Assembly: GCA_965203965.1 (NCBI GenBank) | Contig: CBDBDR010000017.1 | Location: forward strand, 800,001 to 864,000 | Reading direction: 5' to 3' | DNA length: 64,000 nt | Source: Thermodesulfobacteriota bacterium | GTDB lineage: Bacteria > Desulfobacterota_D > UBA1144 > Nemesobacterales > JAJCZQ01 | In this document: piece after piece, positions 14,256 to 53,775 of the stretch | Numbering within the stretch: position 1 is the first letter of the stretch | Layout: every line of letters begins with the position of its first letter | Made by a program: the position numbers and the translations under genes | The notes under the pieces: model-generated | The model's database searches: none | Told to the model about the DNA's origin: nothing | What the model saw: only the letters and a program-made list of their open reading frames with translations

Positions 14256-14714
14256 TCATGATTCCAGATCTCCTGAACTGCTGATAAAACTACACAACCC
14301 CCTGAGTCCCAACAAATAACTGTTCAATCCAAACCCGGAAATCATGCCAACGCAAATCCCTGATACAAAGGAGTTCTGTCTGAATTCTTCACGTTTGAAA
14401 ATATTTGATATATGTATCTCAACCACCGGTAGTGCAGTGGATAATAGTGCATCCCGTATTGCAACACTTGTGTGTGTGTAAGCAGCAGGATTTATCAATA
14501 TCCCGTCAAAATTACCACAAGCCCCTTGGACACAATTTACTATTTCACCTTCCGAATTTGACTGAAAAAACTCCAGAGCCACATCTTCTCTAAGGCTTTC
14601 TGCTTCACGAATTAACATTCTGTTTATATCCTCCAGAGTATTGCTTCCGTAAATATCAGTTTCTCTTTTGCCAAGTGTGTTCAGATTTGGACCATTTACA
14701 ACCAGTATTTTCAC
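14256..14714 (-). CDS. aroQ: Type II 3-dehydroquinate dehydratase
   Basis: [45 protein letters not shown] start with strong SD. Confidence 0.95.
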
Positions 14715-14742
14715 GGTGCTCCTTCCTTGTATCCCGTTTATT

Positions 14743-15393
14743 TTAAATCGTTTTGATTTTCTGCCTTTTATTTAACAACTTCATATTAAAAGGATCTTTT
14801 TTCAACAACTTATCAAGTATTTTAGCCGCCCGAGTGTGATGACCTTGCTCAAAATACAGATTTGCAAGAGTTTCAGTCGCAAAATCCTCTCTTTCATCAT
14901 CCCTGATTTCAGTCCGATAAAAAACCGAGCGAAAGTTTGGGGGTTTATCTTCATCAATTGAAACAAACATATTGAGTCGCTCAAAAACAGCTCTTATTTC
15001 CCGGTTACCGGGATGGCATAAACATAAATTTCTTGCAATATCCAAAGCAGCATCAAAGTTTTTTTGAATTGAATAAATATTTATCAGTTCTCTTGACGCG
15101 TCAATGTTAGCAGGAGCTAGCCTGACGGCAATTTTAAATTCCTCTCTTGCTTTATCAATCATCCATCTTTCAAGATATATCTTACCCAGCAAGTGTCTTG
15201 CAGTAACGCTATGTTTATTTTGACGAATCTCTCTTGTAAGAACCTCCAGAGCTTTATCCAATTTTTTCCTTGTTATCAGCAGCTTTGCAAACTGCACACA
15301 GCAATCAGACATGGGGTCATCTTTAAGCATTCTGGCATACTTGTTCTCTAATTTTTCCAGATAAATCGGGCTTAAAAATTCTGAGTTATCCAT
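14743..15393 (-). CDS. Tetratricopeptide-repeat protein
   Basis: TPR-like helices ([10 protein letters not shown]...[26 protein letters not shown]...DP). Confidence 0.7.
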
Positions 15394-28448: not shown

Positions 28449-29799
28449 AAAAATACATTTTGTGGGAATTGGTGGAATTGGAATGAGTGGTATAGCTGAA
28501 GTGCTCAGCAACATGGGATATGAGATTTCAGGATCAGATCTGAGCGAATCAGTCACAACAAAAAGACTTGAAAGCCTTGGCATCAAGGTAAGCATAGGTC
28601 ACTCACCCGAGAACATACTCAAGAGCGACGTCGTAGTAAGATCATCTGCCGTCAAGGACGATAATGAAGAGATTTTATCAGCCCATGACAATGACATTCC
28701 TGTGATACAAAGAGCTGAAATGCTTGCCGAGATCATGAGGTTAAAATACGGGATCACTATCATGGGAAGTCATGGAAAAACAACAACAACATCGCTTGTA
28801 TCAACCGTTCTGAGGCAGGGGAAATTTGATCCAACCATCGTTGTCGGCGGAAGAATAAAAACACTTGGATCAAATGCTCACCTGGGAAAAAGTAACTTTA
28901 TGGTAATTGAAGCCGATGAAAGCGATGGCTCGTTTCAAAAGCTCTCTCCCATCATCACGGTTCTTACCAACATTGACGATGAACACCTTGATTACTATGA
29001 AAATATAGATAATTTAGTCGTCGCCTTTTCTAATTTTATAGAAAAAATACCTTTTTACGGAATTGCAGTACTTTGCACAGACTGCCCGCGGGTCAAACAT
29101 CTTGCTTCAAAATACAATAAAAGATTTATTACCTACGGCTTGGGAAAAGAGGCGGATATTCATCCGGATAATATAAAAACTCATGGCTTCCATACTAAAT
29201 TTAACGTCTTTTATAAAGGCAGCAATATGGGAGCGGTGGAGCTTAATGTTCCGGGCAAACACAACGCCCTAAACTCACTGGCAGCAATCGCCATCGGCTT
29301 CGAATTTGGAATGAGCTTTGAAAACATTGTAGATGGCTTGAATAACTTTGAAGGAATAGACAGAAGGATGCAACTCAAGGGAATAGTAAATGATGTATTA
29401 ATAATTGATGATTATGGTCATCATCCAGTTGAAATAAAGGCAACAGTTGAATCAATTGAGGATTCCTTTTCAAAAAAGCCGGTGGTCATATTTCAGCCCC
29501 ATCGTTTTACGCGAACAAATATGCTCTTTAAGAAATTTGTCAATGTTCTGGGCACAATTGAAAACCTTTATGTTCTTGACATATACCCAGCAGGGGAAAA
29601 ACCCATAAACAGTATTACGTCGGAAAAATTAGTAGATGAAATAGTAAAGTCAGGAAATAACAGCGCCCAGTATATAAGAGACAAAAAAGAACTGCTTGAA
29701 AAAGTAAAAAACAGCGTTGTCCCCGGAGATATAATACTGACTTCCGGCGCAGGCAATGTATGGATGCATGGAGAGGAACTATTAAAAGCACTACAATGA
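28432..29799 (+). CDS. murC: UDP-MurNAc-L-alanine ligase
   Basis: HFVGIGGIGMSGIA, GSHGKTTTT, EADESD, DDYGHHPVE, FQPHR; ATG 28432. Confidence 0.95.
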   Translation: MYGKIKKIHFVGIGGIGMSGIAEVLSNMGYEISGSDLSESVTTKRLESLGIKVSIGHSPENILKSDVVVRSSAVKDDNEEILSAHDNDIPVIQRAEMLAEIMRLKYGITIMGSHGKTTTTSLVSTVLRQGKFDPTIVVGGRIKTLGSNAHLGKSNFMVIEADESDGSFQKLSPIITVLTNIDDEHLDYYENIDNLVVAFSNFIEKIPFYGIAVLCTDCPRVKHLASKYNKRFITYGLGKEADIHPDNIKTHGFHTKFNVFYKGSNMGAVELNVPGKHNALNSLAAIAIGFEFGMSFENIVDGLNNFEGIDRRMQLKGIVNDVLIIDDYGHHPVEIKATVESIEDSFSKKPVVIFQPHRFTRTNMLFKKFVNVLGTIENLYVLDIYPAGEKPINSITSEKLVDEIVKSGNNSAQYIRDKKELLEKVKNSVVPGDIILTSGAGNVWMHGEELLKALQ

Positions 29800-47155: not shown

Positions 47156-48175
47156 CTACATTGACCTTCCAACTGCTCCTGCAACGGATACAGCTTTCTT
47201 CATAAGATCATCAAAAGTCTTGGGCTTTAAAGATTGTCCTCCATCACTTGCTGCTGTTTCAGGACTGTTATGCACCTCAATAGCAAACCCATCGGCACCC
47301 GCAGCAATAGCAGCAAGGGTTACCGGAGTTACGTATTGCCAATAGCCCGTCCCGTGGCTTGGATCAGCAAACACTGGCAGGTGCGTTTTTTCCTTCAGCA
47401 CGGGTATGGCATTGAGATCAAAAGTGTTTCTCGTGGCAGTTTCAAAAGTTCTTATTCCTCTTTCACACAGCATCACGTTGGGATTTCCCTCGGATAGAAT
47501 GTATTCGGCACACATCAGAAACTCACTGATAGTGGTTGACATCCCTCTTTTTAAAAGAACGGGCTTTCTTGATCTTCCAACTAATTTCAGAAGCGAATAG
47601 TTTTGAGAATTTCTGGCACCTATCTGAAAAACATCTGCGTATTCCTCAAGTAATTCCAGGTCATTTGGGTCCATCAGTTCCGTAACGACTGGTAAGCCAG
47701 TTATTTCCCTTGCCTTTGCAAGGATCTTCAAACCATCCTTGCCCAGCCCCTGAAAGGAATATGGAGAAGTTCTGGGCTTAAACGCCCCACCCCTTAGCAT
47801 TGTTGCCCCTGACTTTTTAACACTCTCCGCAATCGTCAATAGTTGCTCTTCACTCTCAACCGAACATGGTCCCGCTATAACTGATATATTTTCACTTCCT
47901 ACTTCAACGCCGTTAATATTGATCCTGGACGTCTCGTTTACGATCTCTTTACTTGCAAGTTTGTAGGGTTGAACAATAGGAACAACCTTTTCCACGCCTT
48001 TTAGTTGTTTTAAGCTCTCCGCATGATGAGGCTTCCCTCTGTCATCACCGACGACACCGATCACGGTTCTTAGAATCCCTTCTATAGGATGAGGCGTGTA
48101 CCCAAGCTTTTCAATATGTTCCTTAACATTGTCAATCTCTTCTCTGCTTGCGTTATTTTTCATTACTACTATCAT
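47156..48175 (-). CDS. aroF: DAHP synthase type I-beta with N-terminal regulatory domain
   Basis: [43 protein letters not shown]. Confidence 0.95.
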
Positions 48176-48341
48176 TATTTATCTCCCTGCTTATGGCTGA
48201 TGGCTGAAGAATTGCGTGAATCGTTTATTACTATCACATTGCAAACACTAATGTCAATTTACTCTTGCCATGTCCTTGTATGTGTTTACCAAGACCTTCA
48301 TTCTGTTCAACGGATAAATACTCTAAACTCAAAAACTGCAC

Positions 48342-48370
48342 TTGACATAAAATTATTTGGTTGTTATAAA
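48342..48370 (+). promoter_or_regulatory. Near-consensus sigma70 promoter of lipoprotein A1
   Basis: TTGACA, 17 nt, TATAAA with TG extension; SD AAGGAGG downstream. Confidence 0.75.
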
Positions 48371-48409
48371 TTAGTAGCAAGATAGTGAATTTAAAGGAGG
48401 TAGTATAAG

Positions 48410-49228
48410 ATGTTAAATTCTTACAAAAAATTGTTTGTTATATTGGCAGTATTGGTTGCTCCATTGATGTTTATCGCAGCATGCGACGATAGTGCTCCAC
48501 CCCGTCCCATGGATGATACCCCCGCTCCTCCGGATCCGGATCCCCCATCTGAGGATACAAGCTTGGGAAATCCCATAGAAATCTTATTTCCAGGTGCTGC
48601 AGCTTCATTTGCTAGTTTAGCGGATGAAGATGAAGCCGCATTAGCGCCCATAGTAGCGGGTACTGGAATTACTGTTGAGACACTCGCGGCGTTCGATAGT
48701 GAATTATCGGATGCGATTTTAGACCTGGATGACACTCAACTTGGTACTTTATTTAATAATATTCAGACGGTGGCTGATGATGATACATCAGCTATAACTG
48801 AGGAGGTCACTATGATACAAGAGGTTATAAATGGCGGATTGAACGATCTTCTTGTATTTGGGGAAACTGATGAAGACTTCGATTTCATAGGAACTGGCGC
48901 CGCCAATAACGATGATATAGTTGCGATTATTGATTCGTTAGAGATAGTGAACGAACCAGATAGCAGTAGTGTAGAATCTATAAGTTTTACAGCCCCCTGC
49001 GATGTTACTGCAATTTCATTGCCAGAAAATGTATTAGACCCGGCAGCAGGTGCAACTGCTGAAGTTACTCTTGATGGTGTAATTGTCGCTCCAGCCAATG
49101 AACAATATTTATTCACGCTCGCGGCTGCTGGTATGCCGACAACGGCCAGCGTCAGCGTAACGGCTGAAGATGGTGTGACGATGCGTACTTTAACAATTAC
49201 AACTGCAGCTGCCTCAGACTGTGAATAA
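48410..49228 (+). CDS. Acidic lipoprotein A1 with Pro-rich tether and C-terminal cadherin-like beta-sandwich
   Basis: Signal peptide with lipobox IAA-C25, PAPPDPDPP linker, VSVTAEDG motif, Cys pair; paralogous to 49873 and 50881 ORFs. Confidence 0.85.
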   Translation: MLNSYKKLFVILAVLVAPLMFIAACDDSAPPRPMDDTPAPPDPDPPSEDTSLGNPIEILFPGAAASFASLADEDEAALAPIVAGTGITVETLAAFDSELSDAILDLDDTQLGTLFNNIQTVADDDTSAITEEVTMIQEVINGGLNDLLVFGETDEDFDFIGTGAANNDDIVAIIDSLEIVNEPDSSSVESISFTAPCDVTAISLPENVLDPAAGATAEVTLDGVIVAPANEQYLFTLAAAGMPTTASVSVTAEDGVTMRTLTITTAAASDCE

Positions 49229-49255
49229 CCTAGCAACAACGGCTTAAAACAACTT

Positions 49256-49292
49256 GTAGGGAATGCACAGGTTTGCATTCCCTACTTTTTTT
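49256..49292 (+). terminator. Rho-independent terminator after A1
   Basis: GTAGGGAATGCA-caggtt-TGCATTCCCTAC 12-bp stem followed by T7. Confidence 0.9.
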
Positions 49293-49310
49293 ATCTCTGA
49301 ACTTTAAGAA

Positions 49311-49436
49311 AGGTTAGTCGGCTTGTGTTGCTGAGGATAACACCACAGCTTCAGACGCTTCTAGAGATGCAGATCTGAATTCCCTGGAAATTGACGGTCT
49401 AACTCCCGGTAATGAAATAACGAAGAAACGAATTGA
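49311..49436 (+). pseudogene. Remnant of lipoprotein B 5' region (no promoter, no start codon)
   Basis: Matches 50861-50867, 50944-50973 and ~50992-51080 with internal deletions and scattered substitutions. Confidence 0.85.
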
Positions 49437-49671
49437 TCCAAATTTTTCATAAAGACTTATTGCACTATAATTATCCAGTCTAACCTCAAGGATCGCATGG
49501 TTGGCACCTTTGTTAATAAAATACTCCAGCGTGTGGCAGACCAACTTCCGACCAATCCCTTTATTTCTAAACCTACCATCCACGGCTATTTTTAGTATGT
49601 GTATCTCGTCATAGATAAAATACGACAGGCAATATCCGATCAGTTTTCTATATTTATTCTCACAACCAATA
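49437..49671 (-). pseudogene. rimI: Internal fragment of rimI
   Basis: Matches 52359-52593 (offset 2922) with 5 mismatches; 49443-49615 identical; lacks both ends of the gene. Confidence 0.9.
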
Positions 49672-49804
49672 GGGAGTTACACCACTCTACTTCTTTTCCT
49701 TATCATATCTCACCTCTCAATGATCTTCATTCTGTTCAACGGACAAAAATTTGGGATTGTTAGTTGGTCATTACCTATAAACACTCTAAACTCAAAAATT
49801 GCAC

Positions 49805-49833
49805 TTGACATAAAATTATTTGGTTGTTATAAA
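49805..49833 (+). promoter_or_regulatory. Near-consensus sigma70 promoter of lipoprotein A2
   Basis: TTGACA, 17 nt, TATAAA, identical to 48342-48370. Confidence 0.75.
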
Positions 49834-49872
49834 TTAGCAGCAAGATAGTGAATTTAGAGGAGGTAGTATAAG

Positions 49873-50724
49873 ATGTTAAATTCTTACAAAAAATTGTTTG
49901 TTGTATTGGCAGTATTGATTGCTCCATTGATGTTTATCGCAGCATGCGACGATAGTGCTCCACCCCGTCCCATGGATGATACCCCCGCTCCTCCGGATCC
50001 GGATCCCCCATCTGAGGATGCAAGATTTCAAAGTGCTGCAGATACCACAGAGGCAATATTTCCAGGTATTGTAGCTTCGTTTATTGGTTTAGAAAATGCA
50101 GCAGATAGCGCATTAGAGCCCATAGTAGCGAATGTTCCAATTGGTGTTGCCACACTCAGGACTCTCAATAGGGAACTTGTGGATGAACTTTTAGACCTGG
50201 ATAACACTCAACTTGGTACTTTATTTAATAATATTCAGACGGTGGTTGATGGTTCATCAGCTGTAGCTGACGATGTAAGTATGATACAAGAAGCTATAAA
50301 TGAGGGAATTAACAATCTTCTTGTATTTGGGGAAGTTGATGCCCCAGTTCCTTTCATCGGAACTGCCGCTCCCAATAACGATGCTATAGTTGCGCTTGTT
50401 GATTCGTTAGAAATAGTGTACGCATCAACAAGCAGCAGTATAGAATCTATAAGTTTTACAGCCCCTTGCGGTGTTACTGCAGTTGAATACCCAGAAGATG
50501 CACTAGGTACGAGAGACGACGGTGCAAGTGTTGAAGTTACAGTAGTTAGTAGTGGTAGTCCTGATGACATGACAGTTATTGAGCCGGCAAATGAACAATA
50601 TACGTTCCAGCTCGAGGCTGGTATGATGATAATGCTTACTGCCTCCGTAACGGCTGAAGATGGTGAGACGACGGAGGATTTCACTTTAACAGTTGAAACC
50701 CCAACCGTCGCAGCATGTAGTTAA
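49873..50724 (+). CDS. Acidic lipoprotein A2, paralog of A1
   Basis: Lipobox IAA-C25, same Pro-rich tether, SFTAPC, ASVTAEDG, terminal Cys. Confidence 0.85.
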   Translation: MLNSYKKLFVVLAVLIAPLMFIAACDDSAPPRPMDDTPAPPDPDPPSEDARFQSAADTTEAIFPGIVASFIGLENAADSALEPIVANVPIGVATLRTLNRELVDELLDLDNTQLGTLFNNIQTVVDGSSAVADDVSMIQEAINEGINNLLVFGEVDAPVPFIGTAAPNNDAIVALVDSLEIVYASTSSSIESISFTAPCGVTAVEYPEDALGTRDDGASVEVTVVSSGSPDDMTVIEPANEQYTFQLEAGMMIMLTASVTAEDGETTEDFTLTVETPTVAACS

Positions 50725-50762
50725 TTAGTCCTAAAACAAAAAACTCTCAATCACATGTAGTT

Positions 50763-50801
50763 AGTAGGGAATGCGCAGGTTTGCATTCCCTACTTTTTTT
50801 T
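50763..50801 (+). terminator. Rho-independent terminator after A2
   Basis: AGTAGGGAATGCG-caggtt-TGCATTCCCTACT followed by a T run; copy of the 49256 terminator. Confidence 0.9.
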
Positions 50802-50819
50802 ATCTCTGAACTTTAAGAA

Positions 50820-50847
50820 TTGATTTAAGACAACTAAATGTTATGAT
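50820..50847 (+). promoter_or_regulatory. Putative promoter of lipoprotein B
   Basis: TTGATT, 16 nt, TATGAT with TG extension; this segment is deleted in duplication copy 1. Confidence 0.45.
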
Positions 50848-50880
50848 AGAGAAGAAAACAAGGTTAGAGAGTTCTTACCC

Positions 50881-52161
50881 ATGTTGAATTTTTATGAAAA
50901 ATCACTCTTGACTGCGATCGTATTTGCATCTGTCATCTTCATCTCAGCTTGTGTTGCTGAGGATAGCATCACAACAAACACTATTAGAACAATTTCAGAC
51001 GCTTCTAGAGATGCAGATCTGAATTCCCTGGAAATTGATGGTCTAACTTCCAGTAATGAAATAACCAAGAAACGAATTGAACCAAACTTCAACAGCAATA
51101 TAATGCAATACACAGTTGACCTTCCCGGCAGCACTGAGACTATCACGGTTTTAGCAGAGACATCAAGTAATAGAGCCTCTATTGAATTTATGGAAAGGAT
51201 TGAAACTCTGCAGGATGCGGAAACAGGCATCCCGGGATTTCAAATATCTGCTCCCGACGAAGGTGGAATGGTAGAAATTGAAGTAGTCGTAACGGCTGCA
51301 GATAGAAGAACACAAAAAACTTACACTTTGGATATTACACGACATAATGGCAGCAGTACTGAGCATAGATCAAGTCTTCCAAAAGCAACAATATTAACGC
51401 AAGAAGTTCAAGACGAATTAGTTGCGATCACCAGCAGAGATGATGTCTCTGCCGCACTGATTAGTTTTGGAGTAATTAATCCTGATACGATAGAAGTTCT
51501 CCAAATGGGCGGAGACGAGACAGAAGATCTGATTTTATCACTTAGGGAGACTCAACTTGATTCAGTATTCTCTTTTCTGTCTGATGGAAATCTGCCAGGG
51601 GTTGACCAAGAAATTATAGACACTGCCGCAAGAGCATTAGAAGAACTAAATGATTCTCTGAATAACCTGTTTGTATTTACAAATGATGCTGACCGAATTT
51701 TCTTCGGAACTGACGACGACGGAGATAGTGCTGATACCACGATTATTAGCGCGCTCTACGCAGGTGCAATGAAAGATAGTAATAATGGAAATTTCTCCTT
51801 TACAGCCTTGTGCGAAGCTCGTATGATTGAAATTCCAGAAGATGCGGATGCATTACAACCGGCAAATCCGGGTGCTTCACTTCAGGTTACTATTCCCGAT
51901 GGTGATGGTGATGGTAATCCAGACCTTATCACTGCAACAAATGGGGAATACACATTCCCGCTCGCGGATGCTGGAAGTCCACTAGAGATAACGATCACCA
52001 TAACGGCTGAAGATGATTCGGCAATGAGCAGCCGAGTTTTAACAGTTACCACTCCAACACAAGAGGTTTGCGATGCTCAAACTCCCTTTTTGTTTGCGCC
52101 TACTACCCCTTCCCCTGATGAAATCAATCTTCCTGAAATAGATACATTCCCCGATGAATAG
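50881..52161 (+). CDS. Acidic lipoprotein B with an extra N-terminal cadherin-like beta-sandwich domain
   Basis: Lipobox ISA-C24; DADLNSLEI...PNFNS..MQYTV...VTAADRRTQKTYTLDITR cadherin-like pattern; C-terminal part homologous to A1/A2 (TQL, LNNLFVF, SFTALC, ITAED). Confidence 0.85.
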   Translation: MLNFYEKSLLTAIVFASVIFISACVAEDSITTNTIRTISDASRDADLNSLEIDGLTSSNEITKKRIEPNFNSNIMQYTVDLPGSTETITVLAETSSNRASIEFMERIETLQDAETGIPGFQISAPDEGGMVEIEVVVTAADRRTQKTYTLDITRHNGSSTEHRSSLPKATILTQEVQDELVAITSRDDVSAALISFGVINPDTIEVLQMGGDETEDLILSLRETQLDSVFSFLSDGNLPGVDQEIIDTAARALEELNDSLNNLFVFTNDADRIFFGTDDDGDSADTTIISALYAGAMKDSNNGNFSFTALCEARMIEIPEDADALQPANPGASLQVTIPDGDGDGNPDLITATNGEYTFPLADAGSPLEITITITAEDDSAMSSRVLTVTTPTQEVCDAQTPFLFAPTTPSPDEINLPEIDTFPDE

Positions 52162-52262
52162 ATCCAAACCTGCTCCCTCCTGGAATAGATCGATTAGTTC
52201 CTCTAATAACTTCCAAGAGAATATTTTAATTGTCTCTCGTATAAAGGACGAGAAGTTTTTAT

Positions 52263-52739
52263 TTACCTTGCAGGGTAATTTTGTAGATCAAGTAACATCT
52301 CAAGAGCATCGTCGCCGGTCTTACTATAATAATTTCTCCTGACCCTCAAACTTTCAAATCCAAGTTTTTCATAAAGACTTATTGCACTATAATTATCCAG
52401 TCTAACCTCAAGGATCGCATGGTTGGCACCTTTGTTAATAAAATACTCCAGCGTGTGGCAGACCAACTTCCGACCAATCCCTTTATTTCTAAACCTACCA
52501 TCCACGGCTATTTTTAGTATGTGTATCTCGTCATAGACAAAATACGACAGGCAATATCCGATCAGTTCTCCATATTCATTCTCACAACCAATACTGTAAG
52601 AATTTTTATTTTTAAATAACGTTTCAAAAACCGTGCGAGGCCACGGAGATACAAAAGAAACGTCCTCAATTTTTAGTATTCCATCCAGATATTCTTCCGT
52701 CAGCTCTAGAATACAGTCCTTAGTTGTAATATCAGCCAT
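52263..52739 (-). CDS. rimI: Ribosomal protein S18 alanine N-acetyltransferase
   Basis: SPW, EIHILKIAV, RNKGIG, LEVRLDN..AISLYEKLGF, RRNYY, DA. Confidence 0.92.
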   Translation of the reverse strand: MADITTKDCILELTEEYLDGILKIEDVSFVSPWPRTVFETLFKNKNSYSIGCENEYGELIGYCLSYFVYDEIHILKIAVDGRFRNKGIGRKLVCHTLEYFINKGANHAILEVRLDNYSAISLYEKLGFESLRVRRNYYSKTGDDALEMLLDLQNYPAR

Positions 52740-52758
52740 GACTTTACCATATTAAACA

Positions 52759-53775
52759 TCATTGTTGTCCCACTCTGTAAAACCTCGCCAATTTGTCCGC
52801 TGCATGAAAGGGGCTGAGTTTCCCATCCATCACGTCTCTTTCCATTCTATCAATAAACTTACGGACGCCATCATGTTTATAAAAATTGTCTTTCAACATT
52901 TCTACAACCGTTTCGTGCATATGGTAGCTTGCCTGCTTTCGCCTGTTTTTCGCAAAATAACCTGAAGCAACGATCAACTCAAAATATTTCTCTATCACAC
53001 TCCAAACCACATCAATACCTTTTTTTTCCAAGGATGAACACGTTAGCACACGAGGCTTCCAACCCGAATCGGGAAGAGGGAACAGTTTCAGGGCGCTTTC
53101 AATCTCTTTCTTTGCCAATTCCGCTCCATGCACATTTGCACCATCAGATTTATTTACTACAACCGCATCGGCAAATTCCATTATTCCCCTCTTTATACCC
53201 TGCAGCTCATCACCGGCACCGGCAAGGTGAAGCAAGAGGAAAAAATCCACAATGGAATTGACAGCAATCTCGGACTGACCCACTCCGACAGTTTCAACGA
53301 CCACTACATCAAACCCGGCAGCTTCACATAAGATAATTGTTTCTCTCATTCTGGATGTAACACCGCCCGGAAAACCCGATGAGGGTGAAGACCTCACGTA
53401 TGCACGAGAATTTTTTGAAAGATTTGTCATCCTAACCTTATCGCCGAGAATGCTACCTTTTGTTGTTTGACTTGAGGGATCAACCGTAAGAACTGCCACT
53501 TTCTTGCCAAACTCATCGGTCAAATACGTGCCAAATGTGTCAATGAACGTGCTTTTACCAACTCCAGGGACTCCTGATACTCCTATTCTTATGGAGTCAC
53601 CTGCGTTGGTAAGACATTTTTCAATAATCTGCTGTGCTAAGTCAATATCCTCCTTTAATGCACTTTCAATAACCGTTATGGCTTTGCTGAGAATCGCAAT
53701 ATCAGAATCCAGTATTCCGGCAACGTATTGGTTGACAGTTAATGAGCTTTTTCTTCTTTTAGCACCGTTGACCAT
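52759..53775 (-). CDS. meaB: Methylmalonyl-CoA mutase-associated GTPase
   Basis: GVPGVGKST, VDPSS, GSILGDK, ETVGVGQSE, GDELQGIKRG, NKSD. Confidence 0.95.
   Translation of the reverse strand: MVNGAKRRKSSLTVNQYVAGILDSDIAILSKAITVIESALKEDIDLAQQIIEKCLTNAGDSIRIGVSGVPGVGKSTFIDTFGTYLTDEFGKKVAVLTVDPSSQTTKGSILGDKVRMTNLSKNSRAYVRSSPSSGFPGGVTSRMRETIILCEAAGFDVVVVETVGVGQSEIAVNSIVDFFLLLHLAGAGDELQGIKRGIMEFADAVVVNKSDGANVHGAELAKKEIESALKLFPLPDSGWKPRVLTCSSLEKKGIDVVWSVIEKYFELIVASGYFAKNRRKQASYHMHETVVEMLKDNFYKHDGVRKFIDRMERDVMDGKLSPFHAADKLARFYRVGQQ

Follow-up and report, generated by a model that had tools for sequence, protein, structure and literature searches.

The window analyzed here, a stretch of 64,000 nucleotides (nt) from a member of the Thermodesulfobacteriota (assembly GCA_965203965.1, contig CBDBDR010000017.1, positions 800,001 to 864,000), carries three paralogous genes, A1, A2, and A3, on the plus strand between a DAHP synthase gene and a rimI-like gene. 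The predicted products are lipoproteins. A1 and A2 are almost identical at their 5' ends and diverge strongly over the remainder of their coding sequences. The host is an uncultured bacterium with a genome of about 2 Mb that is found in sponge metagenomes; the genome analyzed comprises 1.99 Mb in 17 contigs and is 99.5% complete. The most likely history, with a probability of roughly 70%, is that a tandem duplication took place recently and that long-lived, probably diversifying allele segments of the A1/A2 lipoprotein were then exchanged by homologous recombination. The locus contains the following features (positions of the window):

47156-48175, minus strand: DAHP synthase gene (aroF), the left neighbor of the lipoprotein locus
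48293..48409, plus strand: region upstream of A1, belonging to copy 1 of the duplicated unit; its last 96 nt hold the ribosome-binding site GGAGG
48410..49228, plus strand: A1, predicted lipoprotein gene, open reading frame (ORF) of 272 amino acids
48410..48559, plus strand: conserved 5' coding part (predicted signal peptide, lipobox, and Pro-rich linker), near-identical in A1 and A2
48560..49225, plus strand: divergent mature-domain part of A1; the A2 counterpart is 50023-50721
49256..49292, plus strand: A1 terminator hairpin, 97% identical to the A2 hairpin over 37 nt
49318..49445, plus strand: A3', remnant of an A3-type gene, matching 50944-51089
49436..49671, minus strand: rimI pseudogene fragment, matching 52358-52593
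49672..49872, plus strand: upstream region of A2, the start of copy 2; about 64 nt and about 35 nt of it are absent from copy 1
49873..50724, plus strand: A2, paralogous predicted lipoprotein gene, ORF of 283 amino acids with 63% amino acid identity to A1
50763..50800, plus strand: A2 terminator hairpin
50881..52161, plus strand: A3, larger paralogue of 426 amino acids with an extra N-terminal cadherin-like domain, polymorphic between strains
52263..52739, minus strand: intact rimI-like GNAT acetyltransferase gene (PF00583 at 73.3 bits), the source of the fragment at 49436-49671

The layout of the duplication was resolved by repeat finding and blastn. The upstream region and the first 150 nt of coding sequence form a repeat of 251 nt that is 97% identical between A1 and A2. 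Within it, 48314-48409 and 49777-49872 differ by 4 mismatches in 96 nt, and the first 150 coding nt contain 3 mismatches, with no synonymous difference at 34 synonymous sites. The motif CTTCATTCTGTTCAACGGA is common to both copies and starts at 48296 and 49738. Further downstream, the mature domains of A1 and A2 retain 76-83% identity in the parts that are alignable without gaps. A3' resembles A3 at 92% over 101 nt and at 90% over 30 nt, lacks a start codon and a signal peptide, contains an internal deletion of 18 nt, and is fused to the rimI remnant, which differs from the intact gene at 5 of 236 nt. The order of the flank repeats and the A3'/rimI' remnants thus shows that a segment extending from upstream of A into rimI was duplicated in tandem. 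This event was probably fairly recent, and deletions afterward removed the greater part of A3 and rimI from copy 1. At the duplication junction the letters read ...CACAACCAATA followed by GGGAGTT, and in the intact rimI gene ...CACAACCAATA followed by CTGTAAG. A contig of metagenome run X5 tracks the left flank to 48292 (..TTTACCAA) and then goes on with letters starting ATAGGGA. The letters at these positions suggest illegitimate recombination at a short microhomology, ACCAA(A)TA, as the origin of the duplication. The fusion of A3' and rimI' is spanned by a contig of run X4 over 49298-49638, and the junction between rimI' and the A2 upstream region (49671/49672) by a contig of run X2 over 49617-49806. 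As these duplication-specific junctions are bridged in independent runs, the arrangement is not an artefact of assembly.

The contrast between the flanks and the middle of A1 and A2, first counted by hand in an initial annotation of this DNA, was confirmed. On recount the first 49 codons differ at 2 nt, and 48587-48772 and 50059-50244 (62 codons) show exactly the numbers given earlier, with 25 amino acid changes, 2 synonymous-only differences, and 35 identical codons. For the next gap-free block, up to SFTAPC, the recount was close without being exact (26, 7, and 41 in 74 codons; previously 24, 7, and 40 in 71). Many replacement codons do keep their third position (18 of 25 and 18 of 26 in the two blocks), all six gaps of a protein-guided alignment are whole codons with both frames open, and the near-identity of the rimI fragment was reproduced, its 5 mismatches lying in 236 nt and not in 235. 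Overall, the contrast far exceeds chance, as 171 of 660 mature-domain sites differ versus 7 of 246 in the 5' tract (Fisher p=2e-18). The 171 differences are distributed as 61/62/48 over the three codon positions and comprise 85 transitions and 86 transversions.

That the lipoproteins diverged faster than the junk DNA duplicated with them had been taken as a signature of selection. The silent sites contradict this interpretation, because they show the same excess. Silent and non-coding positions of the flanks differ at 9 of 366 sites (2.5%), namely 4/96 upstream, 0/34 among the synonymous sites of codons 1-50, and 5/236 in the rimI fragment. In the mature domain, synonymous divergence amounts to 36/158 (23%), which is about 9-fold higher (p=6e-13). 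Even where codons are otherwise identical, 8 of 58 four-fold degenerate sites carry a difference, compared with 12 of 482 flank sites (p=5e-4). The complete lack of synonymous differences in the first 50 codons indicates that the identity of the 5' ends is more than protein conservation, and the excess shared by the silent sites indicates that the middle of A1 and A2 has an older history than the flanks, roughly ten times deeper. The identity of the flanks is explained by recombination over older alleles, an outcome that the initial annotation had itself named as speaking against its interpretation.

The ratio of nonsynonymous to synonymous divergence (dN/dS, omega) was computed over 220 aligned codons of the mature domain and falls short of the earlier expectation that it would be well above 1. 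The NG86 method yielded pS 0.226, pN 0.269, and omega 1.24. Other estimates of omega were 1.31 (LWL85), 1.47 (YN00), 1.51 (maximum likelihood in Biopython), and 1.51 with kappa 2.05 (F3x4 codon model), and dS was 0.24-0.27. The bootstrap 95% interval of the NG86 value is 0.86-1.84, with 12% of 5000 replicates at or below 1, and a likelihood-ratio test against omega=1 gave 2dlnL=3.12 and p=0.077, so that a value above 1 is suggestive but not significant. In columns 54-110, the most variable block, which was picked after seeing the data, omega is 2.41 (p=0.057). The hand count had not shown how frequent synonymous differences are in the mature domain, because many of them lie within codons that also change the amino acid. 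For a working protein, an omega near or somewhat above 1 is still highly unusual. When 171 substitutions were introduced at random, only 0.8% of 20,000 mutants kept the frame open, and A1 and A2 each possess their own ribosome-binding site and terminator; neutral decay is thus disfavored, and selection keeps the frames open. Allele classes with omega at or above 1 and with frames kept open fit diversifying or frequency-dependent selection, and in this weaker form the diversifying selection on a surface protein proposed earlier may be retained. Internal conversion tracts between A1 and A2 are not indicated, since an identical run of 14 codons, the longest observed, is within expectation for the amino acid conservation (estimate about 0.11, with a silent change in 18 of 123 identical-residue codons).

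Segments of the A1 and A2 types also occur outside this genome. A protein search of the host genome returned three matches, all within the locus, and none of 40 related genomes (0/40) contained a homologue at E <= 0.001. Among 5.8 billion proteins searched, only P0002, P0004, P0005, and P0006 were found besides the window's own proteins. A library of representatives added P0007, and all else that it yielded were cadherin-like repeats within giant proteins (37 matches at E <= 0.001, three at E <= 1e-30). For A3 there was no other relative of 234-746 amino acids, scans of metagenome contigs and genome contigs for the DNA of related alleles confirmed no relative, and a literature search found nothing on the A1/A2/A3 family. 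At the sites where A1 and A2 differ, the metagenome protein P0002 follows A1 up to alignment column 220 (66 of 69 sites) and A2 beyond it (19 of 22 sites; Fisher p=1e-13). In P0004 the ratio of A1-type to A2-type sites changes from 35:18 to 1:17 at the same column (p=6e-6). None of 10,000 shuffles reached the observed breakpoint value in either protein. Both are therefore mosaics in the sense of a significant change of the nearest relative along the sequence, and the recombination test proposed with the initial annotation has a clear result: A1-type and A2-type segments occur elsewhere in other combinations. P0002 and P0004 are identical to each other at 76 of 76 C-terminal positions, and agree in the middle at only 26 of 56 and 25 of 49. 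P0005 and P0006, from a metagenome contig of length 12714, share an overlap of 17 residues and appear to be a single allele interrupted by a frame break. About 12 residues close to the C-terminus of P0006 resemble the neighboring frame of A2-type sequence, after which the protein returns to frame; this is either a compensated double frameshift or a sequencing error.

The stretch was found in 11 listed runs from four studies, most of them labelled sponge metagenome; the list includes two runs of a 2010 'metagenome' study and four under a coded organism label. Populations were compared using Logan contigs of four runs. In X5 and X4, parts of the window without contig cover are not evidence of absence, and with contigs built from 31-mers the pairing of a given middle with a promoter is not phasable. 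In runs whose longest contigs measure 43-164 kb, the locus lies in pieces of about 160-1400 nt. A variant contig over 48824-49012 differs from the window by 19 substitutions and 9 gap letters. In X5 this variant lies beside a window-identical contig at nearly equal depth (4.9 and 5.2, or 4.9 of 10.1), and in X10 it reaches a depth of 24.7 of 79.9. Loose contig ends at 48731, 48803, and 48826, translated by eye, join peptides of the P0004/P0005/P0007 type (..SGLDMLFTN.., ..NSDVAMIQT..) to A1-type sequence. These recombined contigs and the mosaic relatives back the allele exchange that the initial annotation had mentioned as an alternative. Several alleles coexist in one sample, and codon-level comparison with other alleles covered the differences in these contigs, where replacement changes predominate as well. 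A variant contig of A3 (51566-51980) shows 16 differences in 415 nt, 14 nonsynonymous and 2 synonymous, and the two ungapped parts of the A1 variant have nonsynonymous to synonymous ratios of 6.5:0.5 and 5:1, none of the three being significant alone. In X4, a 2010 run from a different study, all six contigs are at least 99% identical to the window and cover parts of A1, the A3'/rimI' fusion, and A2. Identical alleles and the duplication are thus present in runs dated 2010 and 2024.

The structure of the locus varies as well. Other strains, seen in run X5, have a different sequence right after 48292, the left edge of the duplication. A contig of X2 (50703/49226) joins an A2-type 3' end to the A1-type downstream flank via 16 other letters, which encode a C-terminus of the P0006 type. 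These variant junctions indicate that strains differ in the structure of the locus in addition to its alleles.

The translations of all three genes begin with a basic n-region (MLNSYKK...), followed by a hydrophobic stretch, a lipobox, and a Pro-rich linker. The lipobox reads ..FIAAC in A1 (..LMFIAAC) and A2 and ..FISAC in A3. A1, A2, and A3 thereby combine the basic n-region, the hydrophobic h-region, and the lipobox pattern [LVI][ASTVI][GAS]C by which lipoproteins were recognized, and are predicted to be lipoproteins. A3 is 36% identical to A1 over residues 72-271 and scores 46.8 bits against the Cadherin-like family PF12733, above the gathering cut-off of 24.2 bits. The C-terminal 60 residues of A1 and A2 remain below it at 17.0 and 21.9 bits, and P0002 and P0004 have a precomputed PF12733 match. 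A structure model of full-length A1 from five sequences was too poor for use, with a predicted local distance difference test (pLDDT) of 51.7. An AlphaFold2 model of A1 residues 48-272, based on an alignment of 8 rows, has a mean pLDDT of 67.5 and places a helical domain at construct residues 8-100 (pLDDT 76-87), followed by a beta-sandwich at 131-218. VIA-align comparison of this C-terminal sandwich with Ig-like domains gave only generic matches (Z <= 5.3), and the helical domain had no VIA-align match. Foldseek found no match of the model in the PDB at E <= 0.001, and the best score in the ESM Atlas, 0.79, is at chance level. Each of the three proteins is predicted to carry a signal peptide with lipobox and a Pro-rich linker ahead of a helical domain and a C-terminal Ig-like or cadherin-like beta-sandwich. 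Together they would form a small lineage-specific family of cell-surface lipoproteins that are probably exposed to the outside.

The initial annotation had also considered targeted mutagenesis, possibly by a diversity-generating retroelement, and had seen in the locus a candidate for an undescribed system. Nothing of this kind was detected. Blastn of 48201-52800 against all 17 contigs gave only self and intra-locus matches and no template repeat. A1 and A2 differ by all 12 substitution types, with none dominant and no adenine bias (G>A 25, C>T 22, A>G 22, C>A 17, and others), and protein search and blastn found neither silent cassettes nor further copies in the host genome beyond this locus. 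Three RVT_1 matches, indicating reverse transcriptases, lie on the 38-kb contig C1 at 1079-1330, 14340-15092, and 28490-28798. The largest ORF among them (486 amino acids) has no other Pfam domain and no flanking repeat, no repeat resembling the locus was found beside the reverse transcriptases, and no Rfam family was found in the three loci. At the start of the same contig (1-2830), a 330-aa ORF with a partial RVT_1 match (1022-2014) directly precedes a tandem element at 2008-2678. The latter is a non-coding, GC-rich, and palindrome-rich sequence of 300 nt present in two copies, which lie 371 nt apart and share 97% identity. Differences between these copies are not adenine-specific, and there is no Rfam family match; the element may be a retron-like or other reverse-transcriptase-associated RNA.

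According to the preferred explanation, the gap between the mature domains of A1 and A2 would not stem from point mutations after the duplication. Instead, it would represent older, divergent allele segments that circulate in the symbiont population and are shuffled by ordinary homologous recombination, with crossovers in the conserved 5' part, in conserved internal blocks, and in the terminator region. The likely route is allelic replacement from co-resident strains, or else gene conversion between the paralogues. Long-term diversifying or frequency-dependent selection on the exposed protein, related for example to phage adsorption or sponge-cell recognition, would maintain the segments. Habitat labels and protein architecture point to phage, sponge phagocytes, or another agent as the selective force. 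Taken as a whole, the initial interpretation is therefore partly supported. Several points weigh against the exchange of diversifying segments. The excess of omega over 1 lacks significance, and relaxed constraint, with selection acting only against stops and frameshifts, may also account for the observed values. Non-hydrophobic residues hold no excess of variable sites (40 variable and 45 conserved among hydrophobic residues, 60 and 75 among the others, p=0.78), and this residue-class proxy thus does not show an exposed variable face. Contigs cannot reveal which allele was the donor of a segment and which the recipient, and the mosaic tests rest on proteins and short contigs whose full haplotypes are unphased. 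Furthermore, A3' stands out among the flanks, since 11 of its 131 sites are changed relative to A3, against 12/482 in the others (p=0.004), and it carries three deletions, although its divergence is smaller than that of the silent sites in the mature domain (p=0.001). The duplication could be older, with the other flanks homogenized by gene conversion, or A3 itself could have been partly replaced by another allele. Both accounts of A3' are recombination scenarios.

The first of them leads to a different view of the whole locus, in which A1 and A2 are old paralogues whose ends evolved in concert. Repeated intragenomic gene conversion would have homogenized the rimI fragment, the terminator, and the tract of promoter and signal peptide, with selection holding the middles apart. 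The 8% divergence and heavy deletion of A3' fit this history, as do P0002 and P0004, whose identical C-terminal third and different middles would be expected of the paralogues of one strain with a conversion tract. However, the 5' tract, the terminator, and a dead rimI fragment located 2.9 kb away from its donor would each have needed a conversion of its own, and all three would have had to arrive at about 2-4% divergence; the linkage of an A1-type middle to an A2-type end in another sample would require exchange between strains too. Such a history is rather doubtful, and it modifies the preferred explanation without being opposed to it.

The main reading of the initial annotation, an arms race in which strong positive selection fixed point mutations after a recent duplication, would agree with the omega estimates of 1.24-1.51, reaching 2.4 in columns 54-110, with the many replacement codons that keep position 3, and with the open frames. 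Yet a ninefold excess of silent divergence over the flanks is beyond the reach of selection on amino acids, the omega estimates do not exceed 1 significantly, and the supposedly new segments already exist in other samples in other combinations, which makes this scenario very improbable. Targeted hypermutation of the mature domain, by a retroelement-like or other system, deserves slightly less credence still. The nearly even spread of differences over codon positions and the equal numbers of transitions and transversions would suit it, and reverse transcriptases are encoded on contig C1. These lie on another contig, however, with no locus-like repeat beside them; the 1.99-Mb genome yielded no template repeat in blastn and protein searches, and the substitution spectrum shows no adenine bias. 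Alleles that were stable across 14 years, from the 2010 run to the 2024 runs, also argue against ongoing mutagenesis. Least credible of all is that two strain alleles were stitched in tandem or collapsed during assembly. The polymorphism of the locus does fragment short-read graphs, but the junctions bridged by the X4 and X2 contigs leave this origin with a negligible probability, a verdict untouched by the unphased pairing of middles and promoters.

With respect to its surroundings, the lipoprotein locus lies at a rearrangement point, as a comparison of 47156-48292 with the two closest genomes shows synteny ending exactly to the right of the DAHP synthase gene. These genomes were identified via their DAHP synthases (88-89% protein identity) and have conflicting taxonomic labels, Spirochaetia and Thermodesulfobacteriota. 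Their neighbors of aroF are a gene with a DUF255 thioredoxin domain and mnmG, both of which are about 490 kb away in the host genome. A promoter scan found 9 sites versus 10.5 expected.

The pattern is familiar for bacterial surface proteins, and no new mutation system or molecular mechanism is indicated. Mosaic surface-protein genes under diversifying or frequency-dependent selection include porB, tbpB, and opa of Neisseria, pneumococcal pspA, and ospC of Borrelia. Like these, the A1/A2 family has conserved ends and divergent, long-lived allele classes in the putatively exposed part, segments recombined between strains, omega near or above 1, and several alleles per population. In contrast to them, the host is uncultured and sponge-associated, the family has no relatives beyond a handful of alleles, and two alleles stand in tandem in one genome. 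Leptospira ligA and ligB encode paralogous lipoproteins with Ig-like domains, near-identical 5' parts, and divergent remainders, and mosaicism has been reported for them. The tandem pair described here resembles them in its predicted Ig-like lipoproteins, near-identical 5' parts, and diverging remainder. There is no sequence relationship, however: Lig proteins consist of many Big_2 repeats, whereas one helical domain and one beta-sandwich are predicted here, and Leptospira is a pathogen whereas the present host is a symbiont. Antigenic variation from silent cassettes, as in Borrelia vlsE, Neisseria pilE/pilS, and Mycoplasma genitalium MgPa, likewise features a variable middle between conserved flanks that is changed by segmental recombination. 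It needs an archive of promoterless cassettes in the same genome, whereas here only three full genes and one dead A3 remnant are present. With diversity-generating retroelements the locus shares hypervariation limited to part of a surface-protein gene, but it lacks a template repeat and an adjacent reverse transcriptase, and its differences show no adenine-specific pattern. In metagenomic islands and in the constant-diversity model of phage-driven surface variation, loci fragment in assemblies since co-occurring strains differ in their surface genes. The present locus fragments for a comparable reason, with co-occurring strains carrying different gene versions, but what varies here are the mosaic alleles of a single small gene family, and gene clusters are not swapped.

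More generally, comparing a duplicated gene with its co-duplicated flanks can mimic runaway positive selection when recombination imports older alleles. For sponge microbiology, the locus adds a lineage-specific and strain-variable family of predicted Ig-like-domain lipoproteins of which several alleles coexist in one host sample. These properties recommend the family as a candidate phage receptor or host-recognition molecule, and it can serve as a strain marker. A more specific and quite tentative idea is that the locus is a display site with two slots, in which the 5' part and the terminator hairpin would serve as fixed recombination anchors and strains would trade cassettes encoding the helical and Ig-like domains. 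Discrete allele classes would persist for more than a decade under negative frequency-dependent selection imposed by phage or sponge phagocytes. If this is true, the family would be a strain-recognition marker of the symbiosis.

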